A stretch of DNA of 64,000 bases from Mycobacteriales bacterium (GCA_038253225.1 JBBSHH010000001.1:3537-67536), one strand, 5' to 3'; shown: positions 12,844 to 60,305, counted from the first letter of the stretch. Made by a program: numbers and translations. Notes: generated by a model from the letters alone, not told the origin.

Positions 12844-12917
12844 TCCGCCGTGGTGTAACCAGGCAGCACGCCGATTTTTGGTGTCGGTAGGTCCACGTTC
12901 GAATCGTGGCGGCGGAG
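12844..12917 (+). tRNA. tRNA-Gln (anticodon TTG)
   Basis: Hand-folded cloverleaf: acceptor TCCGCCG/CGGCGGA (U1:A72), D-arm GTGT-AACCAGGCA-GCAC, anticodon stem CCGAT/GTCGG with loop TTTTGGT (anticodon TTG), a 5-nt variable loop, T-arm CCACG-TTCGAAT-CGTGG and discriminator G. The ORF track missed it and placed an over-extended glmU ORF over it. Confidence 0.8.
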
Positions 12918-13012
12918 CGGAGTCGGCTCGTGGGCACGGCGGTACCCTGGCCGGCGTCGTCCGGCGTCCCGCTCGCTGCCGCTGCCGGTCCCCAGGTGGG
13001 AGGAGTGCACCC

Positions 13013-38644: not shown

Positions 38645-38728
38645 GCCCGGGTGGTGGAATGGCAGACACGGGGGCCTTAAAAGCCTCTGCCGCAAGGCGT
38701 GCGGGTTCGAGCCCCGCCCCGGGCACCG
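38645..38728 (+). tRNA. tRNA-Leu (anticodon TAA)
   Basis: Hand-folded: acceptor GCCCGGG/CCCGGGC, anticodon stem GGGGC/GCCUC with loop CUUAAAA (anticodon UAA), long variable arm UGCCGCAAGGCGU (type II, Leu), T-arm GCGGG-TTCGAGC-CCCGC and discriminator A. Confidence 0.8.
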
Positions 38729-43010: not shown

Positions 43011-43861
43011 CGGGCCGGCGCCGCCGCCCGGTCGGCGCTGGTCACCCCGCCCGGCTCCGCCTCGGCGCCCGAGTCGGCGCCCGGCTCGGCGCCGGCGGCG
43101 ATGCGCACCGCCGGCAGCAGCGCCGCGGCGATGAGCCCGTATCCCGATCCGGACGGGTGGAACCGGTCCGGGCAGAACAACCCCGGGTCGGCGCAGAACA
43201 CCGGACCCAGCTCGGTGCCGAACGACACCACTGTCGCGCCGGCCCCCGCCGCCGCCCGTCGCTGCGCCACGGCCATCTGGGCGCTGCGCAGGTAGGCGAC
43301 GAGCCGCAGCGGCTGCGGGATAGGACGCACCGCGCCGAGGTTGGGGCAGGTACCGACCACGACGCGGACGCCGTCGTCGACCAGCCGCTCGACGGCCCGG
43401 CGCAGTTCGGCCGCCGCGGTGGCCGGCGGCACCCAGTGCGTCACGTCGTTCGCGCCGATCGAGATCACCGCCACGTGCGGTGGCTGCAGCAGGACCCGGG
43501 TCACCTGCGCCGAGAGGTCCGCACTGCGGGCGCCGGAGACCGCCGCGACCTCCAGCAGCACCCCGCGGCCCACCGCCGCAAGGTCCCCGGCCAGCGTCGC
43601 GGCCAGGATCGCCCCCGGGGTCTCCGCCGGGCTGTCGGCGCCGACCCCGCAGCCGCTCGAGTCGCCCAGCATCGCCAACCGGGTCAGCGGCCCGTCGCCG
43701 GCACCGAACACGCCGTCGGCGTACGGCGCGCCGGCGAGGATCGGGATCGCGCGGCGGGCCAGCTTCGCCTCGCCCCAGAGCAGGGTCCAGCCGAAGACCC
43801 CGAGCAGTCCGACGCTGCCGCTGCCGACCGCGCCGTACCGGGCGATCCGGCGGCGCCTCAT
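43007..43861 (-). CDS. SGNH/GDSL-family hydrolase, paralog 2 (tandem duplicate)
   Basis: Same block structure (LAMLGDSSGCG, ISIGANDVTH, DRFHPS), with an ATGA overlap with paralog 1. Confidence 0.8.
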   Translation of the reverse strand: MRRRRIARYGAVGSGSVGLLGVFGWTLLWGEAKLARRAIPILAGAPYADGVFGAGDGPLTRLAMLGDSSGCGVGADSPAETPGAILAATLAGDLAAVGRGVLLEVAAVSGARSADLSAQVTRVLLQPPHVAVISIGANDVTHWVPPATAAAELRRAVERLVDDGVRVVVGTCPNLGAVRPIPQPLRLVAYLRSAQMAVAQRRAAAGAGATVVSFGTELGPVFCADPGLFCPDRFHPSGSGYGLIAAALLPAVRIAAGAEPGADSGAEAEPGGVTSADRAAAPAR

Positions 43862-44153
43862 CGCGGCACCCCGCCGAGCACGTCCGGGGGTGCCGAGCCT
43901 GGGCGCGCGTCGCCGCCGGTCACCGCACCCCCAGTCCCATGATCCTTCAAGACGCTACGGCGCGCGCCGGCGTTCCCCCACATTGTGCGGTCTGACCACC
44001 GGACCCGGCGCCGGTTTTCCCAGCCAACCACCGGGGCACGTCGGGGCGCCGGCCGCGGCCGCCGCGGCGCGCAGCCCGCACACCCGACCCGTCGCACTAC
44101 CCTGGAGCGGCGGGCGACGGCGACCGCGCCGAGGCGGATCCGAAGGGCAACTC

Positions 44154-45524
44154 GTGCAGGTCTACGACTCGCTGGCCGAGCTGGTCGGCAACACCCCGTT
44201 GGTCCGGCTGAACCGGCTCGGCGCGGGCCTGCCCGCCCCGGTCGTCGCGAAGGTCGAGTACTTCAACCCGGGCGGCTCGGTCAAGGACCGCATCGCGCTC
44301 GCGATGGTCGAGGCGGCCGAGGCCAGCGGCGAGCTTGCGGCCGGCGGGACGATCGTCGAGCCGACGTCGGGCAACACCGGCGTCGGGCTCGCGATCCTCG
44401 CCCAGGCCCGCGGCTACAAGTGCGTGTTCGTCTGCCCGGACAAGGTGTCCACCGACAAGATCAACGTGCTGCGGGCGTACGGCGCCGAGGTCGTCGTCTG
44501 CCCGACCGCTGTCGCGCCGGAGCACCCCGGCTCCTACTACAGCGTCTCCGACCGGCTGGCCCGGGAGATCCCGGGCGGCTGGAAGCCCGACCAGTACGCG
44601 AACGTCCACAACCCCGAGTCCCACTACGCCTCGACCGGGCCGGAGGTCTGGGCGCAGACCGACGGTCGGGTCACCCACTTCGTCGCCGGGATCGGCACCG
44701 GCGGCACGATCAGCGGCGCCGGGCGCTACCTCAAGGAGGTCTCCGGCGGCCGGGTCCGCATCGTCGGCGCCGACCCGGAGGGGTCGGTGTACTCGGGCGG
44801 CACCGGTCGGCCGTACCTCGTCGAAGGTGTCGGGGAGGACTTCTGGCCGGCGACGTACGACCCGAGCGTCTGCGACGAGATCCTGCCGGTCAGCGACCGG
44901 GACTCGTTCGTGACCACCCGCCGGCTGGCCCGCGAGGAGGCGCTGCTGGTCGGCGGCTCCTGCGGCATGGCCACCGCCGCCGCGCTGCGTCTCGCCGCCC
45001 GGCTGACCCCGCAGGACCTCGTCGTGGTGCTGCTGCCCGACGGTGGCCGCGGGTACCTCTCCAAGATCTTCAACGACGACTGGATGGCCGACTACGGCTT
45101 CTTGACCTCGGCGAGCAACGAGCCGCGGGTCGGCGACGTGCTGGGCCGCAAGGGCGCGCGGCTGCCGGACTTCGTCCACGTCCATCCGGACGAGACCGTC
45201 GGCTCCGCGGTCGCGATCCTGCGCGAGTACGGCGTCTCGCAGATGCCGGTCGTCAAGGAGGAGCCGCCGGTGATGGCCGCCGAGGTGGTCGGCTCGGTGA
45301 TCGAGCGGGAGCTGCTGCACCTGCTGTTCTCGGGGGTGGCCGCACCGCAGGACCGGCTGGAGCGGCACATGTCGCCACCGTTGCCGATGATCGGCTCCGG
45401 GGAGCCGCTGTCCGCCGCGATGGGAGCGCTGGAGAAGGCCGATGCCGCGGTCGTGCTCGACGACGGCAAGCCGCGCGGTGTCATCACCCGGCAGGACGTC
45501 CTCGGCTTCCTGGCCGCCCGGTGA
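44154..45524 (+). CDS. cbs: Cystathionine beta-synthase (PLP domain plus C-terminal CBS pair)
   Basis: PLP-enzyme motifs (FNPGGSVKDR; EPTSGNTG) and a C-terminal CBS-domain pair. The start is the in-frame GTG at 44154. It is followed by metB as in Mtb Rv1077-Rv1079. Confidence 0.9.
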   Translation: MQVYDSLAELVGNTPLVRLNRLGAGLPAPVVAKVEYFNPGGSVKDRIALAMVEAAEASGELAAGGTIVEPTSGNTGVGLAILAQARGYKCVFVCPDKVSTDKINVLRAYGAEVVVCPTAVAPEHPGSYYSVSDRLAREIPGGWKPDQYANVHNPESHYASTGPEVWAQTDGRVTHFVAGIGTGGTISGAGRYLKEVSGGRVRIVGADPEGSVYSGGTGRPYLVEGVGEDFWPATYDPSVCDEILPVSDRDSFVTTRRLAREEALLVGGSCGMATAAALRLAARLTPQDLVVVLLPDGGRGYLSKIFNDDWMADYGFLTSASNEPRVGDVLGRKGARLPDFVHVHPDETVGSAVAILREYGVSQMPVVKEEPPVMAAEVVGSVIERELLHLLFSGVAAPQDRLERHMSPPLPMIGSGEPLSAAMGALEKADAAVVLDDGKPRGVITRQDVLGFLAAR

Positions 45525-47954: not shown

Positions 47955-48395
47955 TCAGGTGCTCGGCTGCCCCGGCTGGAAGACCATCAGCAGCAGGATC
48001 ACCAGCCAGATCAGCGCGACGGCGGCGGACACACCGGCCACCCGGCCGGCCTTGACGCTGGCGGCCTCGCCGGCGGAGATCCGGGCGACCGCGCGGGCCT
48101 GGTCGCGGTAGACCAGCCCGAACACCAGGCCCAGCGCGACGATGAACAACGTCATCGACACCGTCAACCACGGTTGGCTGAGGTGGTTGTCGCCGGTGCT
48201 GCCGAGCCAGAGCCCGAGCAGGAAGACCAGCACCGACGCGCCGCCGTAGATCCGGGTGGTCTGGTGCAGGAAGCGCAGCACCGGCAGGCCCTCGGCCCCG
48301 AGCCGGATGTAGCGCGGCGAGACCGACGTCGCGACGGTCAGCGGGCCGATCAGGAAGATCGACGCGGCGACGTGCAGGAACAGGACGAAGGACAT
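47955..48395 (-). CDS. DUF2269-family integral membrane protein
   Basis: Four TM helices in 146 aa. Confidence 0.5.
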   Translation of the reverse strand: MSFVLFLHVAASIFLIGPLTVATSVSPRYIRLGAEGLPVLRFLHQTTRIYGGASVLVFLLGLWLGSTGDNHLSQPWLTVSMTLFIVALGLVFGLVYRDQARAVARISAGEAASVKAGRVAGVSAAVALIWLVILLLMVFQPGQPST

Positions 48396-48405
48396 GGGCC
48401 GGACC

Positions 48406-49614
48406 CTAGTCCGCGAGGACCGCCGGCTCCGGCCGGGACGCGCGGGTCTCCGGCGCGAGCGTGGCGAGCAGCGCCGCCAGCCCGAGGACGCCGGCGGTGG
48501 CGCCGAACGCGGCGCCGTAGGAGAAGCTGTCGGCCAGCCGGCCGGTCACCAGCGGACCGATCACCTGGCCGGCGTCACCGGCCATCTGGTACGTCGCGAC
48601 GACCGTCCCGCCGCGGCCGGCGACCACGTCCCCGACGACGGCCGCCGGGGCCACGTCGAGCAGGCCCGAGCCCAGCCCGAAGACGACCATCGCGACCAGG
48701 TAGCCCGGCAGCGTCGGGGCGAGCGCGAGCAACAGGATGCCGAGCCCGGAGGTGGCGCAGCCGGCGATCAGCACCGGGCGCCGACCGCGGGTGTCGGCGA
48801 CCGTGCCGGCCGGGAGCAGGACCAGGGCGTTCACCGCCGCGACGATCACGAAGCCGATGCCGACCCAGACGAAGCCGACGCCGAGCACGTCCACGACGAA
48901 CAGCGGGATCAGCGCGCTGCGTACCCCCAGCACGGCCCAGGTGTCGGCGAAGTTCGCCGCCAACGCGGCCCGGTACGCCGGCCGGCGCAGCGCCGCCCCG
49001 AGGCCGGTCCGCTGCATCCGCGGGTCGTCGCCGGCCCGACCGGCCAGGGCGGTGTGCCGCAGCGCGAACACCCCGATGCCGCCGGCCACGCTCAGCGTGG
49101 CGGCGTAGAGGAAGAACGGCGCCCGGATCGACCAGGCCGTGACCACGCCGCCGAGCGCCGGGCCGGTCACGCCTCCGAGCAGGAACCCGCCGGAGAACAG
49201 CCCGGAGGCCCGGCCGCGCTGCTCGGCGGTGACGACCCGCAGCAGCAGGCTGACCGCGCTGACCGAGAACATCGCCGAGCCGATCCCGCCGACGCCGCGC
49301 AGCAGCAGCAGCTGCAGGTAGCTCTGCGCCAGCCCGGCCAGCGCGCTGCTCACCCCCACGATCGCGATCCCGCCGGCGAGCACCAGGCGTTCGCCGAAGC
49401 GGTCCACCAGCCGCCCGCAGCCCAGCACGGACACCAGCCGCATCAGCGCGAAGGCGCTGATCACCGCCCCGGAGGCGGTGCGCCCGACCCCGAAGTCGCG
49501 GGCGAAGACGGGGATCGCCGGCGCGACCACGCCGAATCCGACGGCGACGGAGAACGCCACCGCCACGAGGACCCCGACCTCGCGAGGCAGGCCGGCCAGC
49601 GAGGGGAGGCGCAC
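48406..49614 (-). CDS. MFS transporter
   Basis: 12 predicted TM segments and an MFS motif (GRLVDRFGERL). The start is uncertain (GTG 49614 or the track ATG 49668). Confidence 0.8.
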   Translation of the reverse strand: MRLPSLAGLPREVGVLVAVAFSVAVGFGVVAPAIPVFARDFGVGRTASGAVISAFALMRLVSVLGCGRLVDRFGERLVLAGGIAIVGVSSALAGLAQSYLQLLLLRGVGGIGSAMFSVSAVSLLLRVVTAEQRGRASGLFSGGFLLGGVTGPALGGVVTAWSIRAPFFLYAATLSVAGGIGVFALRHTALAGRAGDDPRMQRTGLGAALRRPAYRAALAANFADTWAVLGVRSALIPLFVVDVLGVGFVWVGIGFVIVAAVNALVLLPAGTVADTRGRRPVLIAGCATSGLGILLLALAPTLPGYLVAMVVFGLGSGLLDVAPAAVVGDVVAGRGGTVVATYQMAGDAGQVIGPLVTGRLADSFSYGAAFGATAGVLGLAALLATLAPETRASRPEPAVLAD

Positions 49615-49809
49615 GGGGCGCAGTCTCGCACCCCGCCTACTTGTGCGCCGTTCTCGCCCAGCGTACAAAGATCAGCACGCGCAGTCACGGGATGGGCCGC
49701 GGGAGGCCGTCTCGATACTGCGCGGCGGAGCGACCGTCACCGCCGTGCCAGGCGGCGGTCGCGGAGCCGCGGGCGGTCACGGCGACCGTGGCCCCCCGCG
49801 GCTCACCGG

Positions 49810-51750
49810 CTATCGGCCGCGGCGCGCCCGCAGGTAGTCCCGGACGACGTACTCGCCGAGGCGGTCCGGCGACGGCGCGAACACCCGGCCGCCGTTGCGC
49901 CGGGCCAGGCTGTCGACGAAGCGCACCAGCCGCGGCTCGTCGTCGAGCATGAAGACGTTGATCGTCGCACCGCGCCGGCTGATCTTCTCGACCTCGGCCA
50001 TGGTCCGCTCGATCGTCTCGGGCAGCGGCGGCCAGCAGAACTCGGCCCGCCCGCTCGGCAGCAGGTGCGCGGTCGGCTCGCCGTCGGTGACGACCAGCAC
50101 CACCGGCTCGGCGTCGGGATGCCGGGCCAGGTGCCGACCGGCGATCATCAGGGCGTGCTGCAGGTTCGTGCCCTGCACCATGTCCCAGGACAGCCCGGCC
50201 AGCTCGGTCGGCCGCAGCACCCGGGCGTAGTCGCTGAAGCCGATGATCTCGATGGCGTCCTGCGGGTACCTCGTGGTGACCAGCGAGTGCAGCGCCAGCG
50301 CCGTGGACTTCGCGGTCCCCCAGGTGCCGCGCAGCGCCATCGAGTAGGACAGGTCCACCAGCAGGCAGACGGCCGCAGCGGTCCGCCGCTCGGTCTCCAC
50401 CACCTCGAAGTCCTCGACCCGCAGCGCGACCCGGGCGCCGGGGCCGGCCCGCAGCACCGCGTTGCGCACGGTGCGGACGACGTCGAGCGGCTGCTCGTCG
50501 CCGAACTCCCACGGCCGGCTGTCGCCGGTGTGCTCACCGGTCGCGCCGGCGTCCGCGACGTCGTGCTCGCCGCGGCTGTGGGCCGCCAGCCGGGCGAACA
50601 CCCGGCGCAGGGCGGTGCCGCCGATCCGGCGAACCGCCCGCGGGGTCAGCTCCAGCCGGCCGGCCACCCGCTGCAGGTAGCCCTGCTGCTCCAGCTCGCG
50701 TTCGATCTGCCGCAGCGCGGCGACGTCGTCCACCGCGGGCCGGCCCAACGCCCGGGCGACGGCGTCCTGGTCGACGTCGTCGAGGCTGGCGCCGGGGTAG
50801 TCCTGCCCGAGCGTCGAGGAGAGCTCGTCGAGGTCGGCGAGCTCCTCCAGCGCGGTGGTGGCGTCGCCGAGACCCATCCCGCCCTCGCCGCGCATCCGTT
50901 CCCGGCCGGACCAGTCGAGGTCGGGCCGGCGGGAGCGCAGCGCCGCGCCCAGCCGATCCATCTCGCCGGTCAGGCCCATGTCCGCCATCGCGGCGGCCAT
51001 CAGGTTGGCCAGCTCCTCCCGCTGCTCGCCGGAGAGCGACTGCATCAGCCGCTGGCCGGCCGCGGCCCGGCGGGCGAGGGCGTCGACGAGCTCCTCGAGG
51101 TTCGCCGGGTGCTCGGGAAACAGGTCGCCGTAGCGCTGCATGAACTGCTCGAAGGCCGGCCCGGTGTCCTCCCCGCGGGCGTCCGCCTCGAGCATCGCGT
51201 TGAGCTCGGCCAGCATGTCCTTGACCCGGGCCAGCTCGGCCGGGCCGGCGTTCTGCAGCGCGGACTTGAGCCCCCGGAACTGGCTGTCGAGCACCTCCCG
51301 GCGGAGCAGGTCCTGGATCTGCTGGTAGGACGCCCGCGCGTCCGGGGAGCGCCACGGGTAGTCGGCCAGGGTCCGGACCGCTCGGGCGGTGTCGCGCGGC
51401 AGCGCGTCCAGCTCGCTCTCGGCCAGCCGGGCGGCGTCGTCCGGGTCCGGGAACAGGGCCGCCCGCTCCTGCCCCAGCGCCCGGTCGAGCAGCTCCCGGA
51501 CCTCCTCCAGCGTGCCGTCGAGCCGGCCGCGCTCGCGGACCTCACGTACCCGGGCGCGCACCGAACGCGCCAGCTCGTCCAGGCCGCGCCGGCCGTCGGT
51601 GCCGCGGCGCAGCAGCTGCGAGAGCGCCTCCCGCGGGCTCATGCCGTCGAGGACGGCGTCACCCATCTCATCGAGCGCGCCGGCGATGTCGTACGGCGGG
51701 GCCAGCGGGTCCCGGCCGCCGGACCAGGCGCCGTAGCGGTAGCCGGTCAC
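49810..51750 (-). CDS. VWA-domain protein (CoxE/BchD-like partner of the adjacent AAA+ ATPase; Mtb Rv0959-like)
   Basis: Long acidic coiled N-terminal region and a C-terminal VWA (VCLLVDLSYSM...VVLVVTDGEPT). Confidence 0.75.
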   Translation of the reverse strand: MTGYRYGAWSGGRDPLAPPYDIAGALDEMGDAVLDGMSPREALSQLLRRGTDGRRGLDELARSVRARVREVRERGRLDGTLEEVRELLDRALGQERAALFPDPDDAARLAESELDALPRDTARAVRTLADYPWRSPDARASYQQIQDLLRREVLDSQFRGLKSALQNAGPAELARVKDMLAELNAMLEADARGEDTGPAFEQFMQRYGDLFPEHPANLEELVDALARRAAAGQRLMQSLSGEQREELANLMAAAMADMGLTGEMDRLGAALRSRRPDLDWSGRERMRGEGGMGLGDATTALEELADLDELSSTLGQDYPGASLDDVDQDAVARALGRPAVDDVAALRQIERELEQQGYLQRVAGRLELTPRAVRRIGGTALRRVFARLAAHSRGEHDVADAGATGEHTGDSRPWEFGDEQPLDVVRTVRNAVLRAGPGARVALRVEDFEVVETERRTAAAVCLLVDLSYSMALRGTWGTAKSTALALHSLVTTRYPQDAIEIIGFSDYARVLRPTELAGLSWDMVQGTNLQHALMIAGRHLARHPDAEPVVLVVTDGEPTAHLLPSGRAEFCWPPLPETIERTMAEVEKISRRGATINVFMLDDEPRLVRFVDSLARRNGGRVFAPSPDRLGEYVVRDYLRARRGR

Positions 51751-51754
51751 CGGC

Positions 51755-53176
51755 TCATCCGCCGTACACCGTCCGGCCGGGCAGCTCGTCCTTCGCCAGC
51801 TTGCGGCCCAGGTGCAGCCCCTCCAGGACGAACTCCAGCGCGGCGGCGGCCAGCCCCGGGGTCTCGGCGCCCTCGTCGATGCCGAGCCGCTCGAGGATCC
51901 GGGCCAGCCCCGGCACCGGGCCGAGCCGGGTCAGCAGCTCGGTGGCCGCCACCAGCTCGCCGGTCTCCACCGTCTCGCCCTCGGCGAAGCGGTGCAGCAC
52001 CCCGGAGAGGTCGACGCCGGCCAGCCGGGCCCGGAAGGTCTCGGCGGTGGCGCGGCGGAGCAGGTGCGCGAGCACCTCGGCCTCCCGGCCCTCCTCGGCC
52101 TGCTCGAACTCGACCTTGCCCATCGACGCCGGCACCACGGCCGGCAGGTCGGCGACCCGGGCCACGGCGACCGGCTCACCGGTCAGCGCCGCACGCCGGA
52201 CGGCGGAGGCCGCCACGGTCTCGGCGGCGGCGATCGCGAACCGGGCCGACACCCCGCTGCGCGCGTCCACGGCCGGGGACTCGCGCACCAGCCGGGTGAA
52301 CCGGGCCAGCACCTCGAGCAGATGGTCCGGCAGCAGCGCCGACACCGCGTCCGGGCCCCACCCGAGCACCGCCTCCTGGCGGATCAGGGTCAGCTCGTCG
52401 GCCAGCCGCAGCGGGTAGTGGGTGCGGACCTCGGCGCCGAACCGGTCCTTGAGCGGGGTGATGATCCGGCCGCGGTTGGTGTAGTCCTCGGGGTTGGCGC
52501 TGGCCACCAGCAGCAGGTCCAGCGGCAGCCGCAGCGTGTAGCCGCGGACCTGGATGTCACGCTCCTCCAGCACGTTGAGCAGGGCCACCTGGATCCGCTC
52601 GGCCAGGTCCGGCAGCTCGTTGACGCTGAAGATGCCGCGGTTGGTGCGCGGCACCAGCCCGTAGTGCACGGTCTCCGGGTCGCCGAGGGTGCGCCCCTCC
52701 GCCACCTTGATCGGGTCGACGTCGCCGATCAGGTCGCCGACGCTCGTGTCCGGCGTCGCGAGCTTCTCGCCGTACCGGTCCGCCCGGGGCAGCCAGGCGA
52801 CCGGGGTGCCCTCGCGGCGCTCGGCCACCAGCCGGGTGCAGCGCACGCAGACCGGGGCGTAGGGGTGGTCGTTGATCTCGCAGCCGGAGACCACCGGCGT
52901 CCAGTCGTCGAGGAGCCCGACCAGGCTGCGGATCAGCCGGGTCTTGCCCTGCCCGCGCTCGCCGAGCAGCACGAGGTCGTGGCCGGCGAGCAGTGCCCGT
53001 TCCACCTGCGGGAGCACGGTCGCGTCGAACCCGACGATGCCGGGGAAACGGTCCACCCCGGCCGTCATCCGAGCCAGCAAATTGTCGCGGATCTCCGCCT
53101 TGACGCTTCGATGCCGGTGACCGCTGGCGCGCAGCTCAGCGAGTGTCGCGATGGCGGGGGCAGGGCTCGTCGTCAC
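51755..53176 (-). CDS. Magnesium-chelatase-subunit-like (ChlI/BchI-family) AAA+ ATPase (Mtb Rv0958-like)
   Basis: FPGIVGFDATVLPQVERALLAGHDLVLLGERGQGKTRLIRSL (Walker A region) and FSVNELPDLAERIQVALLNVLEERDIQVRG (Walker B / sensor). Start choice: the track's GTG at 53242 overlaps the upstream HNH ORF by 107 nt, the in-frame GTG at 53176 overlaps it by 41 nt, and an ATG at ~53074 would avoid the overlap. Confidence 0.75.
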   Translation of the reverse strand: MTTSPAPAIATLAELRASGHRHRSVKAEIRDNLLARMTAGVDRFPGIVGFDATVLPQVERALLAGHDLVLLGERGQGKTRLIRSLVGLLDDWTPVVSGCEINDHPYAPVCVRCTRLVAERREGTPVAWLPRADRYGEKLATPDTSVGDLIGDVDPIKVAEGRTLGDPETVHYGLVPRTNRGIFSVNELPDLAERIQVALLNVLEERDIQVRGYTLRLPLDLLLVASANPEDYTNRGRIITPLKDRFGAEVRTHYPLRLADELTLIRQEAVLGWGPDAVSALLPDHLLEVLARFTRLVRESPAVDARSGVSARFAIAAAETVAASAVRRAALTGEPVAVARVADLPAVVPASMGKVEFEQAEEGREAEVLAHLLRRATAETFRARLAGVDLSGVLHRFAEGETVETGELVAATELLTRLGPVPGLARILERLGIDEGAETPGLAAAALEFVLEGLHLGRKLAKDELPGRTVYGG

Positions 53177-54596
53177 AGTGGCCAACGCTACGTCCGGCCC
53201 TCGCGGCGTGCACGGGCGATCCGCTCCCGGCATACGGGTCACCCGAATCGAGCAGGGGACACCCTGCCGAGGCTGGCGGTCGGGTCAAGGGCGGTGGCGC
53301 GAGGGCGTGCGCGAGATCGTGGAGGCGTTCTCGCCAGCCGTGGCTCCTGGGAACCTGGGCCGGGTCGACCCACGGTGGCGGGATGAACATCGGCCGCCCG
53401 TCGGCACCGACGCAGGCCCGCCAGCCGCCGTGGTGGACCGTCGCGTGGTGCCGTCCGCAGAGCGCGACGAGGTTGGCCAGAGCGGTGGCTCCGCCGTCGG
53501 CCCAGTGGGTGCAGTGATGGACGTCGCACCAGGGCGGCGGTCGGTCGCAGCCGGGAAAGGCACATCCGCCGTCGCGGACGAGCACGGCACGGCGTAGCCC
53601 GGCCGGCGCGGTGTAGGCGCCTCGGCCGACGTCCAACGGTTCGCCCCGGGTGCCGAGGACGACCGGGATGACCCGCGCGTCGCAGGCGAGCAGCCGTGCG
53701 GTCTCGGCGGACACCGGCCCGGCCCAGTCGAGGACACCGCCGACGGCGCCGAGGCGCTTCTCCAGGGTCTGCAGGTCGACGGTGAGCTGGACCTGCGGCT
53801 GCCGGCCGCCCTCGGTCGGCATCGCCGGGCTGTGCAGCGCCAGCTCGACCAGCTCGACGAGGGCGTCGGCGCGGCGGCGGGCCGGGGAGCGCAGGTCGCG
53901 CTCGGCGTCGCCGGCTGCCGCCCGGGGCGCGGCGAGCGGGCTGAGCGCGCCGAGCAACGCCGCTGCCGCGACCGGGTCCAGGCGGCCGCGCAGCACGAAC
54001 TGGCCGGACAGATCCGGTGAGACGAACAGCTCCCGCCCGGCAACCGCCGCCTGCTCGTCGCGAGCCAGCGTGTCACCGGCGTCAGGGTCGACGGCGTGGC
54101 GCAGATGCCGGCCGAGTCGGGCCAGGACCTGCGGGTCGTGCTCGGCGGCCTGCTCGAGCAGGAAGACTTCGGCGCTGCCCCGGGTCTCCGCCGGTACGCC
54201 GGCCGGCAGCGCGCCAAGGGTGCGCACCACCACCTCGGCATGCGCACGGCTGATCTCCCCGGCGGCCAGTGCCGACCCGGTCGCGGTGTGCTCCTCGGTG
54301 AGGGCGCGGGCCAGCACGACGTCGCGGTGCGCGGCCGCCGGGTGGCGGCGCAGCCGGGAGCAAAGCCATGCGGCGGTGGACACCGCCCCGGCGCTGGTGG
54401 CCGCCCCGCGGCTGTCGGCTTCCCGCACCAGCCGCAGCCGGGCATGGTCGAATTTGGCCGTCAGCGTCTCGGCCTCGTCCAGCGCATCGAGCACGTCCGG
54501 CTCGGTCATCGACCACAGCGGCGCGCCGGCCAGCGCATCGACCGCCGCGCGCAGTCGGCCCAGCGCCTCGATCACCGTATGCTCGACCACCTGCAT
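53136..54596 (-). CDS. DUF222 + HNH endonuclease protein (REP13E12-family selfish element)
   Basis: DUF222 N-terminal region and a C-terminal HNH (CAFPGCDRPPPWCDVHHCTHWADGG...CGRHH). The C-terminus continues ~60 aa beyond the usual family end (FIPPPWVDPAQVPRSHGW...), into the 5' end of the ATPase gene. Confidence 0.8.
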   Translation of the reverse strand: MQVVEHTVIEALGRLRAAVDALAGAPLWSMTEPDVLDALDEAETLTAKFDHARLRLVREADSRGAATSAGAVSTAAWLCSRLRRHPAAAHRDVVLARALTEEHTATGSALAAGEISRAHAEVVVRTLGALPAGVPAETRGSAEVFLLEQAAEHDPQVLARLGRHLRHAVDPDAGDTLARDEQAAVAGRELFVSPDLSGQFVLRGRLDPVAAAALLGALSPLAAPRAAAGDAERDLRSPARRRADALVELVELALHSPAMPTEGGRQPQVQLTVDLQTLEKRLGAVGGVLDWAGPVSAETARLLACDARVIPVVLGTRGEPLDVGRGAYTAPAGLRRAVLVRDGGCAFPGCDRPPPWCDVHHCTHWADGGATALANLVALCGRHHATVHHGGWRACVGADGRPMFIPPPWVDPAQVPRSHGWRERLHDLAHALAPPPLTRPPASAGCPLLDSGDPYAGSGSPVHAARAGRSVGHCDDEPCPRHRDTR

Positions 54597-54790
54597 ACCG
54601 AGACCATAGGTGCGGCCACCGACAGAACCCGTTCGCCGGAAATCCTTATGCACAAGGACTTCTTGGCTCGCTCCGGCGAACCGGTCGGGGCGCCCGGCTC
54701 CCGGTACGACCGCCGTTCCGCACCGCGCCGCGGGCGGCATCCGCGGTGTCGCCGCAGCGGCCGGCCCCGGAGGCAGGCGAGGATGGTCCG

Positions 54791-55363
54791 GTGCCCCCGG
54801 CCGACACCCGTTCGCTCTACGTCGTCGTCTCCGGTCCGCCGGCCAGCGGCAAGACCACGCTGGCGCGCGACCTGGCGCCCCGGCTGGGGCTGCCGCTGCT
54901 GGCCAAGGACACGATCAAGCAGGCGCTGATGAGCGTGCTCGACGTCTCCGACGTCGAGGCGTCTCGGCGGCTCGGTCGGGCGTCGGCGGCGGCGCTGCTG
55001 GCGGTCGCCGCCGAGAGCGGGTGCGGCGTGCTGGAGAGCGTCTGGTACCGGAGTCGGGCGCTGCCGGCCCTCGCCGGCCTGCCCGGCGCGGTCGTGGAGG
55101 TGTTCTGCCGTTGCGACGAGGCGACCCTGCGGCGGCGATACCGCGCCCGGGCGGGCACCAGGTCGGCCGGGCACTTCGACGACCAGCGGCTGCCGGATGA
55201 GCTGTGGAACGCCGACATCGGCGAGCCGGTGGCCGGTGGCTGGCCGGTGATCGAGGTGGACACAGCCGGGCCGGTCGACATCGGCGCGCTGGTCGCCCGG
55301 GTGCTCGCCGCGACCCGGCCGCGGCCGCCCGTCAGTGCGGGCAGACGGCCCCGGTCTGGGTGA
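54791..55363 (+). CDS. P-loop NTPase / small kinase-like protein (AAA_33-type)
   Basis: Walker A VVVSGPPASGKTTLARDL and ~190 aa. Divergent from the HNH gene. The start is the in-frame GTG at 54791. Confidence 0.6.
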   Translation: MPPADTRSLYVVVSGPPASGKTTLARDLAPRLGLPLLAKDTIKQALMSVLDVSDVEASRRLGRASAAALLAVAAESGCGVLESVWYRSRALPALAGLPGAVVEVFCRCDEATLRRRYRARAGTRSAGHFDDQRLPDELWNADIGEPVAGGWPVIEVDTAGPVDIGALVARVLAATRPRPPVSAGRRPRSG

Positions 55364-55955
55364 CCTGCCACGGGAGCACGACTGGCCGGCCGTCCGGGTC
55401 GCGCAGCGGTACGCCGCCGAACCCGACCACTGTGCTGTCACCGAGCGGCACCCGAAGCGCCTGGGTGACCCCGCCGATGACGGCTCGGACCAGCAGCGGT
55501 GCGGGACGGACCCGGATCGCCGCACAGTCGTAGCGGATGCGCAGCACCACCGGGACCTGCCCGCCGGCCGGCAGCAGGACCGGAGCCGCCAGCCGGCCCC
55601 CGACCGCGAGCTGCCGATGGCCGGCCGAGCCCACTTCGGCTCGCTGCAGCGCGAGCCCCGGCTCGGCGAGGCCCACGGTGAGGACCCGGACCTGACGCAG
55701 CCCCTGGTTGGCGAGCGCGAAGCCGTAGTCGAACGTGTGCGCCGCCGGGTCGCCGGTGAACGTGGTGGCCCCGGTGAACAGCAGCGGGTCGGTGCCGGGG
55801 CGGGGCGCCACCAGCAGCTGCGGGGCCGCGCTGGTCGGACCGACCGTCGGCCGGACCGGCTGCCGGCCGAGCGCGCGGGTCTCCCGGCTGTCCGCGCGGG
55901 ACACCGCCACGGCCACTAGCAGCCCGGCCCCGACCGCCCCCGCGATGCCCAGCAT
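55332..55955 (-). CDS. Membrane-anchored hypothetical protein
   Basis: The real part is the 207-aa C-terminal segment of the track ORF, with ATG then TM MLGIAGAVGAGLLVAVAV. The rest of the 515-aa track ORF is antisense to the ROK gene. Confidence 0.4.
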   Translation of the reverse strand: MLGIAGAVGAGLLVAVAVSRADSRETRALGRQPVRPTVGPTSAAPQLLVAPRPGTDPLLFTGATTFTGDPAAHTFDYGFALANQGLRQVRVLTVGLAEPGLALQRAEVGSAGHRQLAVGGRLAAPVLLPAGGQVPVVLRIRYDCAAIRVRPAPLLVRAVIGGVTQALRVPLGDSTVVGFGGVPLRDPDGRPVVLPWQVTQTGAVCPH

Positions 55956-56042
55956 CCGGCCGCCCCGCCCGCGCCGGCCGGGCCGGCGCGGCGGGCGCTC
56001 GGTGCCGATGATGTCCGGCGGTGCTGCTGCCACCCGGCCAGT

Positions 56043-56999
56043 GTGAGCCAGGATGGGTCGGTGCGGAGCGCGGTCCTGGCCATCGACATCGGCGGCACCA
56101 AGCTGGCGGCCGCGCTCGTCGGCCCGGCCGGCGAGCTGGTCGGAGAGCCGCTGCGCGTACCGACGCCGGTCGGGGACGGCGAGCAGGTGTTCGCCGCGGT
56201 GACGGCGCTGGCCGGGAGGGTGCTCGCCGGCTCGACCGAACGACCGGCCGCCGCGGGCGTCGGCTGCGGCGGCCCGATGCGCTGGCCGGCTGGTGAGGTG
56301 TCGCCGCTGAACATCCCGGGCTGGCGGGGCTTCCCGTTGCGGTCCCGGCTCGCCGCCCAGCTGGGCCTCGACGTCCGGCTGCACAACGACGCCGTCTGCT
56401 TGGCGGTGGGGGAGCACTGGCGGGGCGCCGGCCGCGGGGTCGGCTCGATGCTCGGGATGGTCGTCAGCACCGGGGTCGGCGGTGGTCTGGTGATCCGTGA
56501 CCGGCTGGTGGACGGGGCCACCGGCAACGCCGGTCATGTCGGTCACATCGTGGTCGACCCCGGCGGGGCGCCGTGCAGCTGCGGTGGCCGGGGCTGCCTG
56601 GAGGCGGTGGCGCGCGGGCCGGCGGTGGTTGCCTGGGCGCGGGAGCGCGGCTGGTCGCCGGCCGGGGCGGCGCCCGCGGACGGGGTGCTGCTGGCGGCGG
56701 CGGCCCGAGCCGGTGACCCGGTCGCCGCGGCCGCGTTCGAGCGGGCCGGTGCGTTCATCGGGGTCGCGCTCGCCTCCGCCGTGGCGCTCTGCGACCTGGA
56801 GCTGGTGGTGGTCGGCGGCGGCCTGTCCGCGGCCGAGGACCTGCTGTTGCCACCGCTGCGGGCCGCCTTCGCCCGCCATGCCCGGCTTCCGTTCGCGGTC
56901 GGCGTACCGATCGTCGCGGCGGCGCTGGGGCAGTCCGCCGGTCTGCTCGGCGCGGCCGCGCTGGTCCTCGCCGGCGACCGGTACTGGTCGGCCGGCTGA
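56043..56999 (+). CDS. ROK-family sugar kinase (glucokinase / N-acetylglucosamine kinase-like)
   Basis: LAIDIGGTK ATP motif and zinc motif GHVGHIVVDPGGAPCSCGGRGCLE. Confidence 0.85.
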   Translation: MSQDGSVRSAVLAIDIGGTKLAAALVGPAGELVGEPLRVPTPVGDGEQVFAAVTALAGRVLAGSTERPAAAGVGCGGPMRWPAGEVSPLNIPGWRGFPLRSRLAAQLGLDVRLHNDAVCLAVGEHWRGAGRGVGSMLGMVVSTGVGGGLVIRDRLVDGATGNAGHVGHIVVDPGGAPCSCGGRGCLEAVARGPAVVAWARERGWSPAGAAPADGVLLAAAARAGDPVAAAAFERAGAFIGVALASAVALCDLELVVVGGGLSAAEDLLLPPLRAAFARHARLPFAVGVPIVAAALGQSAGLLGAAALVLAGDRYWSAG

Positions 57000-57034: not shown

Positions 57035-58255
57035 GTGACGATCGCGACGGGGCTGATCGGTCTGGCCGAGGTGACGGCCGCCCGCGAGCTGCTGGCCGAC
57101 GTCGTGCGGTTCACCCCGCTGGAGGGCTCCCGGCCGCTCTCGACCGCCGTCGGCGGCCCGGTCAGCCTCAAGTGCGAGAACCTGCAGCGGGCCGGCTCGT
57201 TCAAGATCCGCGGAGCGTACGTCCGGCTGGCCCGGCTCAGCGCCGCGGAGCGGGCCCGCGGGGTGGTGGCGGCCAGCGCGGGCAACCACGGGCAGGGTGT
57301 CGCGCTCGCCGCCAGCCTGCTCGGCACCGACGCGACGGTGTTCATGCCCGAGGGGGCGCCGCTGGTCAAGGTCGCCGCAACCCGGGCGTACGGCGCCCAG
57401 GTGCACTTCGCCGGTGTCACGGTCGACGATGCGCTGGTGGCCGCGCAGCGGCACGCCGGTGACTCCGGGTCGGTCTTCATCCACCCGTTCGACCACCCGG
57501 ACATCATCGCCGGGCAGGGCACCGTGGGCCTGGAGATCCTCGACCAGTGCCCGGACGTGCGCACGATTGTGGTTTGCACCGGCGGCGGGGGGCTGGTCGC
57601 CGGGATCGCGGCGGCGGTGTGCGGGCGCCGGTCCGACGTTCGGGTCGTCGCCGCCCAGGCGGCCGGCGCGGCGGCGTTCCCCACCTCGTTGGCGGCCGGG
57701 GCGCCGGTCGCGCTGACCAGCATGTCGACGATCGCCGACGGCATCGCGGTGGGGCGCCCCGGTGAGATCACCTATGCCCACGTCGCCGCGCTGGTCGATC
57801 GGGTGGTGACGGTCTCGGAGGAGTCGCTGTCCCGGGCGCTGCTGCTGTGCCTGGAGCGGGCGAAGCTCGTCGTCGAGCCGGCCGGGGCGGCGGCGGTCGC
57901 CGCGGTGATGGACGACCCGACGGCCTTCGAGCCGCCGGTGGTCGCGGTGCTCTCCGGCGGCAACATCGACCCGGTGCTGCTGCTGCGGGTGATCCGGCAC
58001 GGTCTGATCGCGGCCGGGCGCTACCTGTCGTTCCGGCTGCGCATCCCGGACCGGCCGGGCGAGCTGGCCCGGCTGCTCGGGGTGCTCGCCGGCACCGGGT
58101 CGAACGTGCTCGACATCGAGCACCAACGAACGGGACCCAAGCTGCACCTCGACGAGGTCGAGGTGGCCCTCCAGTTGGAGACCCGCGGGCCGGAGCACTG
58201 CGACGCCGTCCTCGCCGAGCTGCGGGCCGCCGGCTATCCGCTGCTGTTCAGCTAG
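57035..58255 (+). CDS. ilvA: Threonine ammonia-lyase (threonine dehydratase) with C-terminal ACT-like domain
   Basis: PLP motif SLKCENLQRAGSFKIRGA, Gly-rich VCTGGGGLVAG and a C-terminal regulatory domain. Confidence 0.85.
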   Translation: MTIATGLIGLAEVTAARELLADVVRFTPLEGSRPLSTAVGGPVSLKCENLQRAGSFKIRGAYVRLARLSAAERARGVVAASAGNHGQGVALAASLLGTDATVFMPEGAPLVKVAATRAYGAQVHFAGVTVDDALVAAQRHAGDSGSVFIHPFDHPDIIAGQGTVGLEILDQCPDVRTIVVCTGGGGLVAGIAAAVCGRRSDVRVVAAQAAGAAAFPTSLAAGAPVALTSMSTIADGIAVGRPGEITYAHVAALVDRVVTVSEESLSRALLLCLERAKLVVEPAGAAAVAAVMDDPTAFEPPVVAVLSGGNIDPVLLLRVIRHGLIAAGRYLSFRLRIPDRPGELARLLGVLAGTGSNVLDIEHQRTGPKLHLDEVEVALQLETRGPEHCDAVLAELRAAGYPLLFS

Positions 58256-58929: not shown

Positions 58930-59349
58930 TCACCTCGGCCGACCCGCTCGGGTGCAGATGGTCACCTCGGCGATGTTCGCCCGACCGCGGGTCGGCAGGT
59001 CGTAGCGGACCGTCGTGACCCGCCGGCCGTCGGCCCGGGCGGGCACCCGCAGCCGCGCCAGCCCGACCTGGGCGCCGGCGCGGTCCCGGGCTCGAACCGT
59101 GCACAGCACCGCGTCGGCCGGCGCCTTGACCACCTCGAACCGGACCTCGACGCCGCCGGGACGCACCGCATAGCTGATCAACCGGGTCTGCACCGCCGGG
59201 TCGGACTGATGGACGGCGATCGTCAGCAGACCGGCGAGCAGGATGGCGGCGAGCAGCCCCAGGCCGCCGTAGGTCGCGAGCCGCCGCCGGCGGCCGGCCG
59301 GGCGGCCGTAGCGACCGGCCGGTGTCCGGCGGGCTGCGCGAGCGGTCAC
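58930..59349 (-). CDS. DUF4307-domain membrane protein (Mtb Rv1081c-like)
   Basis: One TM ([17 protein letters not shown]) plus an extracytoplasmic domain. The start is an in-frame GTG. Confidence 0.55.
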
Positions 59350-59426
59350 GGCGTCCTCGGGGACAATGTCGGGAACCGCATCATCGCGCCCCAGCCAGAC
59401 TCTGCCCCGAACCCAGGAGGCCGCCC

Positions 59427-60305
59427 GTGACCGAGCCGCTGCGGCTGATGGCCGTCCACGCGCACCCGGACGACGAGTCGAGCAAGGGCGCCGCGGCGAT
59501 GGCACGCTACGTCGCCGAGGGCGTCGACGTGCTCGTGGTGACGCTGACCGGCGGTGAGCGGGGCTCGATCCTCAACCCGGCGATGGAGCGGCCCGACGTG
59601 CTGGCCAACCTGGCCGAGATCCGCCGGCAGGAGATGGCCCGGGCCCGTGAGATCCTCGGGGTCCGTCAGGTTTGGCTCGGCTTCGTCGACTCCGGGCTGC
59701 CGGAGGGCGACCCGCTGCCCCCGCTGCCGCCCGGCTGCTTCGCGCTTCAGCCGGTGGAGACCGGCGCGGCGGCGCTGGTCGCGCTGATACGCCGGCAGCG
59801 GCCGCACGTGGTGCTCACCTACGACGAGAACGGCGGCTACCCACACCCCGACCACATCATGTGCCATCAGGTCTCGGTGGCCGCGTTCGAGGCGGCCGGT
59901 GACCCCGAGCGATACCCGGCCGCCGGCAGCCCGTGGCAGCCGCTGAAGCTCTACTACCAGATGGGGTTCCACAAGGCCCGGTTCGAGGCGCTGCACGCCG
60001 CGATGGTGGGGCTGGGGCTGGACTCGCCGTACGGGGAGCGGCTGGAGCAGTGGGAGGACAAGCCGGGTGACGCCGGGCGGGTGACGACCCGGGTGCCGTG
60101 CGGGGACTACTTCCAAGTGCGCGACCAGGCGCTGCTGGCGCATGCCACCCAGGTCGACCCGAACAGCTTCTGGTTCCTCTGCCCGCTGGAGGTCCAGCGC
60201 TCCGCCTGGCCGACCGAGGACTTCCAGCTGGCCCGCTCGCTGGTCGACACCATCCTGCCGGAGGACGACCTGTTCGCCGGTGTCCGGGAGCGGGTCAGCG
60301 CGTGA
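59427..60305 (+). CDS. mca: Mycothiol S-conjugate amidase (Mca) / MshB-family LmbE deacetylase
   Basis: LmbE motif [10 protein letters not shown] and HPDH zinc ligands. The position downstream of greA matches Mtb Rv1082 (mca), but Mca and MshB cannot be separated by eye. The GTG start follows RBS aggagg. Confidence 0.75.

Follow-up and report, generated by a model that had tools for sequence, protein, structure and literature searches.

A DUF222-HNH gene and a predicted kinase gene upstream of a conserved AAA+ ATPase/VWA gene pair in a Mycobacteriales genome

The genes at the locus

The window examined here, a stretch of 64,000 nucleotides from a Mycobacteriales bacterium (GCA_038253225.1 JBBSHH010000001.1:3537-67536), contains between positions 49810 and 55363 a ChlI-like AAA+ ATPase gene followed by a gene for a VWA-domain protein, with a DUF222-HNH endonuclease gene directly upstream on the same strand and a P-loop kinase gene divergent from the latter. 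Comparison with related loci makes it likely that the HNH and kinase genes were inserted, in this lineage, upstream of a conserved ATPase/VWA pair; so understood, the locus represents no new system but a commonplace insertion involving a selfish-looking gene of a known kind. As the window has about 75% GC and consequently shows long open reading frames (ORFs) in every frame, real genes were picked by codon-position GC. By this measure all four ORFs named (VWA, ATPase, HNH and kinase) are coding, and together with Pfam it upheld the coordinates and domain identities given in the original prediction for this DNA. The same prediction took the four genes for a complete island and missed a fifth, which encodes a small membrane-anchored protein. 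The features of the locus are the following.

49810-51750, minus strand: VWA/MIDAS protein of the Rv0959 type, 646 aa, Pfam VWA_2
51755-53176, minus strand: ChlI/BchI-like AAA+ ATPase of the Rv0958 type, 473 aa, GTG start at 53176, Pfam
53136-54596, minus strand: whole DUF222-HNH ORF, 486 aa, stop at 53136-53138
53292-54596, minus strand: conserved DUF222-HNH core, 435 aa, ATG start at 54596
53136-53291, minus strand: non-native C-terminal tail of the HNH ORF, about 51 codons and the stop
53177-53245, minus strand: retained native leader of the ATPase gene, about 55-70 nt, resembling the 3' end of the relatives' small gene or spacer
54597-54790, no strand: divergent intergenic region from HNH start to kinase start, 194 bp
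54791-55363, plus strand: AAA_33 P-loop 'predicted kinase', 190 aa, Pfam PF13671
55332-56033, minus strand: small membrane-anchored protein, 233 aa

The HNH protein matches DUF222 at E=9.9e-50 over profile positions 2-306 of 306. Its HNH motif scores 20.6 in Pfam, slightly under the cut-off of 21.4, and PHROG HNH families match it at 1e-5. Eleven homologues were aligned (alignment A2), and the invariant residues of the family are all present in the window protein (C345, C350, H360, H361, H364, N375, C380, H383, H384, H388 and H389); the core of the gene appears intact. The ATG at 54596 was chosen as its start because the upstream extension of the ORF, to 54740, shows flat codon-position GC. 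The hexamer TATGGT lies 6 nt before this ATG, a spacing typical of actinobacterial leaderless promoters, and the start may on the strength of this motif be leaderless. The GC content at third codon positions (GC3) of the HNH gene is 0.89, as against 0.96-0.97 for the ATPase, VWA and MFS transporter genes (0.97 for VWA).

What had drawn attention to this gene is its 3' end, where the frame was said to lack the usual stop and to run 40-100 nt into the ATPase gene. It does remain open until 53136-53138 and overlaps the ATPase coding sequence, in a different frame, by 41 nt, or by 107 nt if the overlap is measured to the longest ATPase ORF, which starts at 53242. The 11 aligned homologues stop 8-15 residues past a 'WR..L..L' motif, about 50 residues before the stop of the window ORF, and most of the 120 listed matches cover just 80-90% of the query. 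Within the tail (53139-53291) codon-position GC is 0.75/0.71/0.73, without periodicity, compared with 0.83/0.56/0.89 in the core. On its path the tail crosses junction DNA, then the native leader of the ATPase gene and finally the beginning of the ATPase coding sequence. Since the homologues end earlier and the tail is non-periodic, the HNH gene is best described as devoid of its usual stop and reading into host DNA. The extra length of the HNH ORF is an artefact of read-through that the insertion created, not a novel fusion.

On the other side of the overlap, the native start and N-terminus of the ATPase have been kept. The alignment of homologues matches from residue 1, and the start is placed at GTG 53176 because the conserved N-terminus of the family, 'VT.xAP..TL.ELRA.GH.HKSVKAEIRDNLL', opens exactly there. 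The corresponding database protein P0001 (437 aa, 100% identical) begins 36 codons late, at ATG 53068, and drops 36 conserved N-terminal residues that include 'LxELRxSGHxHKSVKAEIRDNLL' (53068-53176). It is the source annotation that truncates the ATPase, not the insertion; one possibility is that the gene caller started late to avoid the overlap with HNH.

The kinase scores 40.2 bits with AAA_33 against a cut-off of 27. Its product is identical to the 190-aa database protein P0241, and the sources call its homologues 'predicted kinase'; GC3 is 0.93-0.94. The original prediction placed kinase and HNH in one island, a grouping that finds no echo elsewhere. The closest kinase homologue (71%) adjoins glgP/glgE, with no HNH gene nearby, while the closest HNH homologues lie beside the fluoride-channel genes crcB/DUF190 (65%; locus L083) and beside katG/furA (50%), with no kinase nearby. 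The only tie between the two genes is the 194-bp divergent intergenic region that they have in common.

Copies of the HNH gene more than 65% identical were absent from the public collections searched, and in JGI metagenomes the search for closer copies returned five loci, the best at 51% identity. HNH and its closest homologue have no conserved DNA flanks in common. The family is near-absent from phage and plasmid collections (2 and 7 weak partial matches, respectively), and no second copy of the HNH, kinase or small gene occurs in the 64-kb window.

Comparison with related loci

Homologues of the ATPase are very numerous, with more than 8000 (a lower bound) at E<1e-50 in a protein search. A scan limited to a single genome for each species yielded 596 relatives or more; among these, the best 80 loci (ATPase 59-79% identical, from many actinobacterial orders) were used to read synteny, homologues of HNH and kinase being looked for within 10 kb of the ATPase. 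To these were added the four closest retrievable relatives (L081, L082, L089 and L090), all metagenomic, in which the ATPase is 83-86% identical. VWA directly follows the ATPase in 80 of the 80 genome loci. A DUF222-HNH or kinase gene near the pair was found in none of the 84 loci, so that the two genes are specific to this lineage. No relative shows the HNH-ATPase overlap either, a finding that, had it been made, would have spoken against a recent insertion.

The four closest relatives agree in gene order. PAS-GAF-SpoIIE, ilvA and ROK genes lie on one strand, and on the other a small gene is followed by ATPase, VWA, MFS and DUF2269; in L081 the stop of the small gene and the start of the ATPase gene overlap by 4 nt. 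The distance from ROK to ATPase is about 60-740 bp in these relatives versus about 2.9 kb in the window. DNA homology to them ends near the ROK start (about 56071) and restarts only at 53199-53230, shortly upstream of the ATPase start (in blastn, at 53230 against L081 and L082 and at 53199-53202 against L089 and L090). Between this point and the ATPase gene lies the leader at 53177-53245, whose alignment score with the end of the small gene of L081 was reached by 2 of 300 shuffled sequences. A 15-aa stretch encoded in it corresponds to the C-terminus of the L081 protein at 80% identity, and its codon-position GC is flat. Because the leader still resembles the sequence of the relatives, the ATPase can be said to have kept its own leader along with its start. 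The original prediction had the promoter and the start of the ATPase both displaced; the start was not, N-terminus and leader being retained, whereas the upstream gene, and presumably the promoter with it, has indeed been separated from the ATPase.

The junction between HNH and ATPase was placed at 53245-53291, that is, in the roughly 45 nt between the family-typical HNH end (about 53292) and the beginning of host homology (at or below 53245). A hint of host homology past 53245 toward the HNH end appeared in a MAFFT alignment and was rejected, as local scores for 53246-53330 were no better than those of shuffled sequences.

On the far side of the kinase, the small gene occupies the position, and has the orientation relative to ROK, of the gene that precedes the ATPase in L081, L082 and L090. 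The N-terminus of its product is rich in arginine, and the protein further comprises a single hydrophobic helix and a domain of some 150 aa. With the upstream gene of the relatives (alignment A4) it has 'PD(V/I)IG..PP', the hydrophobic helix and 'CAA.R' in common, and blastp aligns the two at 29% over 189 aa. The last 32 nt of the small gene overlap the 3' end of the convergent kinase gene; GC3 is 0.92-0.93. We have moderate confidence that the small gene is a diverged, fast-evolving orthologue of the relatives' pre-ATPase gene, as position and these motifs suggest, and its product may be a third component, peculiar to the lineage, of the ATPase/VWA operon.

An independent assembly of window positions 54192-56101, from the same population, is available (L085; Logan, SRR24807095_216364). 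It is 99.5% identical, with 9 mismatches, and confirms the ROK / small gene / kinase / HNH 5' side of the locus.

More widely over Actinomycetota, the contents of the slot before the ATPase differ: a FIST gene, a transporter gene of the MFS or AI-2E kind, the small membrane-protein gene, or no gene at all. Genes turn over frequently in this slot. In many distant relatives (Streptosporangiales, Actinomadura and others; L002-L042) the upstream gene is a divergent FIST-domain sensor gene, of which three examples are listed.

L006:8663-9934: FIST gene, divergent, upstream of ATPase
L004:8712-9917: FIST gene, divergent, upstream of ATPase
L012:8711-10150: FIST gene, divergent, upstream of ATPase

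The proposed insertion and its alternatives

In the course of events that we favour, the ancestral locus would have been a string of genes for the small membrane-anchored protein, ATPase, VWA, MFS and DUF2269, divergent from ROK and ilvA. About 2.2 kb (roughly 53246-55442) would then have been inserted between the small gene and the ATPase gene, bringing in two divergent genes: the DUF222-HNH nuclease gene, free-standing and intact, and the AAA_33 'predicted kinase'. The HNH gene would have come without its own stop, or have lost it later, and its stopless frame would for this reason run some 51 codons via junction DNA and leader and then through 41 nt of ATPase coding sequence. The ATPase gene would have been severed from a promoter presumably common to it and the small gene, with the kinase and HNH genes now between them. 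ATPase and VWA would probably be transcribed today by read-through from the HNH gene, which is the most plausible source of their transcript since it lies on the same strand and no terminator appeared in the scan. The proposal that the insertion was recent holds only in a relative sense, in that the insertion would postdate the divergence from relatives whose ATPase is 83-86% identical.

Several points weigh against this reconstruction. Flanking the insert, no target-site duplication, terminal repeats, integrase or tRNA was found; the direct repeats that the original prediction proposed to look for, like inverted ones, amount as possible scars to short GC-rich matches at chance level, and Rfam and tRNA scans near the island gave no riboswitch and no integration-site tRNA, the sole tRNA genes being far off, at 12.8 kb and 38.6 kb. 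No relative with more than 86% ATPase identity was found, which makes the timing and the boundaries of the insertion approximate (about +/-50 nt per side). There is no second assembly of the junction between HNH 3' end and ATPase at 53245-53291, as L085 ends within HNH; exact-protein look-ups of VWA, P0001 and the 486-aa HNH protein gave no independent copy of it, and that of the kinase led to L085 only. The similarity of the small protein to its presumed orthologues is weak (composition-corrected E=0.004, 25-32% identity). The transcription model is one that we infer, and a consensus scan, uninformative in DNA of 75% GC, found neither promoters nor terminators.

Kinase and HNH may have arrived together or separately. 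That each entered this permissive slot by an insertion of its own, as opposed to one block of 2.2 kb, is a serious contender to which we would give somewhat less than an even chance. No other HNH locus with flanks, and no other kinase locus, links the two genes, and they differ in GC3 (0.93-0.94 for kinase, 0.89 for HNH). However, they have a compact divergent intergenic region in common and together account exactly for the extra DNA, and no intermediate turned up in the form of a genome that carries just one of the two. The reverse history, in which HNH and/or kinase were ancestral at the site and were lost in all sampled relatives, appears improbable. Slot content does vary across Actinomycetota, and both gains and losses clearly happen there, but loss would be needed in all 84 loci, including the four close relatives in which the small gene directly precedes the ATPase. 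Moreover, the HNH tail looks non-coding and lies over DNA homologous to the leader of the relatives, and the codon usage of HNH is atypical for the locus.

A metagenome-assembly chimera at the HNH/ATPase junction, joined for example via a repeated HNH gene, would be another explanation, which we judge very improbable. The source is apparently a metagenome-assembled contig, L085 breaks within HNH, and the 65%-identical HNH paralogue of L083 comes from the same sequencing run as L085. However, that paralogue is only 71.5% identical in DNA, too diverged for collapse; L085 confirms the other side of the insert at 99.5%; and with a break within HNH, the 3' end of an HNH gene would even so have to lie beside the leader of the ATPase. 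Even less credit can be given to the idea that HNH, kinase, ATPase and VWA constitute one functional island of NTP-dependent conflict or defence, with HNH as the effector of an AAA+/VWA core. Some defence systems do contain AAA+/VWA and HNH modules, and the four genes are tightly packed, with HNH, ATPase and VWA on the same strand and overlapping or nearly abutting. Yet the pair occurs without HNH and kinase in 84 of 84 related loci, within a conserved housekeeping synteny, and the HNH-ATPase overlap consists of a non-conserved tail without coding periodicity. PADLOC returned no matches for VWA, HNH or the small protein and short matches at the level of the P-loop for ATPase and kinase. This explanation is largely refuted. 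The conflict-system framing of the original prediction does not suit a pair that is universally conserved and syntenic and has no meaningful PADLOC match; the data give a conflict-system role of the ATPase/VWA pair no support.

Insertion of HNH and kinase leaves room for a more far-reaching reading, which we regard as unlikely. It holds that the selfish HNH gene, having severed the operon from its first gene and native promoter, took over its expression via an HNH promoter, possibly leaderless, and by read-through translation, and jointly that the Rv0958/Rv0959 pair may have a role associated with the envelope, as hinted at by the conserved string that runs from the small membrane protein through ATPase, VWA and MFS to DUF2269. 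If true, the host would depend on keeping the selfish HNH gene, a case of addiction by promoter replacement.

The HNH gene resembles the proteins of REP13E12, or '13E12 repeat family', in that a full-length DUF222 is followed by a C-terminal HNH motif. In M. tuberculosis REP13E12, HNH endonuclease and DUF222 are grouped as one category of repetitive elements (PMC10589994), a class with no defined function that contains a putative prophage attachment site (PMC10589994; PMC13061034). The window differs in having a single HNH copy in 64 kb, with the best public relative at 65%; prophage-attachment use is not evident here, and no integrase or prophage genes were seen among the called neighbours of HNH. 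Of the original description as a REP13E12-type element, the family membership stands, and the status of a repeat element and the use as an attachment site do not follow; as judged from the protein, the label would be justified solely at the family level (DUF222-HNH). The gene can also be likened to free-standing HNH homing-endonuclease genes, as it is solitary and of atypical codon usage, its homologues lie in unrelated contexts, and the orthologous sites of relatives lack it. In contrast to these, no intron or intein context and no target-site repeat was found, relatives are rare on phages and plasmids, and mobility has not been demonstrated for the DUF222-HNH family. As a natural case, and a clean one, of a DUF222-HNH gene that came to lie within an operon, the locus lends modest circumstantial support to the view that this family, which includes the REP13E12 repeats in M. 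tuberculosis, moves between sites. Its main value lies in annotation and curation, namely a full-length ATPase orthologue, an HNH read-through ORF and an overlooked small gene.

The ATPase/VWA pair and the flanking genes

ATPase and VWA make up a core module of Actinomycetota, housekeeping-like in character and without established function. The VWA gene starts 4 nt past the ATPase stop on the same strand. In Pfam the ATPase matches Mg_chelatase, AAA_5 and Sigma54_activat, weakly yet over the cut-offs, and the VWA protein matches VWA_2 with 29.4 bits against a cut-off of 27. Conservation was read over 83 ATPase sequences (59-100% identity) and 73 VWA sequences. The Walker A motif of the ATPase, GERGQGKT, is invariant. 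In its Walker B, 'SVNELPDL' (residues 183-191; 52616-52630, minus strand), the canonical D-E is replaced by N-E; N186 and E187 are conserved in at least 97% of the sequences, as are many arginines, and 'NELPD' is invariant. The metal-ion-dependent adhesion site (MIDAS) of the VWA protein is complete (D466/S468/S470, T528 and D556) and likewise at least 97% conserved. The comparison does add three things: among the Actinomycetota sampled the pair is near-universal, MIDAS and the unusual N-E Walker B do not vary, and in this clade the pair has a small membrane protein linked to it upstream and an MFS/DUF2269 pair downstream. About the function of the Rv0958/Rv0959 pair nothing new was learned from the locus.

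Between Walker A and Walker B the ATPase carries a Cys-x4-His-x5-Cys-x2-Cys cluster (residues 99-113; 52838-52882, minus strand). Its residues C99, H104, C110 and C113 are invariant among close relatives (79-86% identity) and not across the 83 sequences. A zinc-binding role was rejected in view of this limited conservation; the cluster may be a lineage-restricted metal-binding insert.

In M. tuberculosis the corresponding genes are Rv0958/Rv0959 (Mb0983/Mb0984 in M. bovis), described as a 'possible magnesium chelatase' and a VWA protein, and here too a gene for an ATPase of some 470 aa comes immediately before one for a VWA protein of some 650 aa. The Rv0958 orthologue of M. marinum, at 1,392 bp, is similar in length to the ATPase gene of the window (PMC11237697). 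The window pair differs in having a ROK/ilvA ... MFS/DUF2269 context and an insert upstream, and its likeness to the M. tuberculosis pair is read from Pfam matches of orthologues. The VWA orthologues of L081, L082, L089 and L090 (about 80% DNA identity) have precomputed matches to PF27532 (Mb0984_helical) and PF27098 (Rv0959_3rd); since these families bear the names of Rv0959 and Mb0984, the original assignment to the Rv0958/Rv0959 type is supported. The local Pfam scan of the window protein gave VWA_2 only, in a copy of Pfam that perhaps does not include the two models. As for function, the literature found names Rv0958/Rv0959 only in screens and tables and holds no functional study, in agreement with the view that the pair has no established role.

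Like BchI/ChlI, the ATPase belongs to the helix-insert clade of AAA+ proteins, and its partner, like BchD/CobT, carries a C-terminal VWA domain with a MIDAS. The nearest solved sequences are ChlI, at a distant E=5e-9, and the best Foldseek match of the AlphaFold model is BchI (1g8p, probability 0.99). The model is mediocre, with a mean pLDDT (predicted local distance difference test) of 71.8 and values below 50 in the AAA+ core (residues 136-254), so that the predicted fold backs BchI/ChlI as the nearest fold and nothing finer. The N-E in Walker B sets the family apart from the D-E of the BchI/ChlI type. A true chelatase was considered and rejected, NCBIfam equivalog scores being 36 versus 467 for BchI, 37 versus 500 for BchD, and 42/34 versus 779 for cobaltochelatase (TIGR02442). 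With scores of about a tenth of the cut-offs or less, the pair is not a bona fide BchI/BchD, an identity that the original prediction had named as contrary to its proposal. No BchH/CobN-like large subunit is encoded among the called neighbours of the window or of the four closest relatives, Rfam found no cobalamin riboswitch in the window, and the neighbours of the pair (MFS, DUF2269, ROK, ilvA, mshB-like and cbs genes) provide no tetrapyrrole or cobalamin context. By analogy with BchI-BchD, CobS-CobT and MoxR-VWA, and on the basis of domain content, the pair is probably an ATP-driven hexamer coupled via a MIDAS-bearing adaptor to the remodelling or maturation of a client.

Around the locus lie genes that are for the most part conserved in position. 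The order of MFS and DUF2269 is identical in L081, L082, L089 and L090.

43296-45524, plus strand: PALP+CBS, cystathionine beta-synthase-like; housekeeping, syntenic with relatives
47955-48395, minus strand: DUF2269 membrane protein, Pfam; conserved downstream neighbour
48406-49668, minus strand: MFS transporter, Pfam; conserved downstream neighbour
56043-56999, plus strand: ROK-family gene, far edge of the variable slot, Pfam ROK 1.5e-58; syntenic in relatives
57035-58255, plus strand: PALP+ACT, threonine dehydratase-like (ilvA); housekeeping, syntenic with relatives
59178-60305, plus strand: PIG-L (MshB-like) deacetylase; housekeeping, syntenic with relatives
12844-12918, plus strand: tRNA-Gln(TTG); far from the island
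38645-38727, plus strand: tRNA-Leu(TAA); far from the island, the sole one at the Rfam gathering score

A 1301-aa ORF at 48394-52299 on the plus strand runs antisense to the VWA, ATPase and MFS genes. It was rejected as a gene, its codon-position GC of 0.94/0.60/0.74 being that of a high-GC artefact. The start of ROK is possibly near 56073 instead of 56043. Close by, near the 5' end of the small gene and the divergent ROK start, positions 55964-55995 hold an imperfect palindrome, rich in GC and matching at about 91% over 33 nt, which could be an operator or could have arisen by chance from the GC content.

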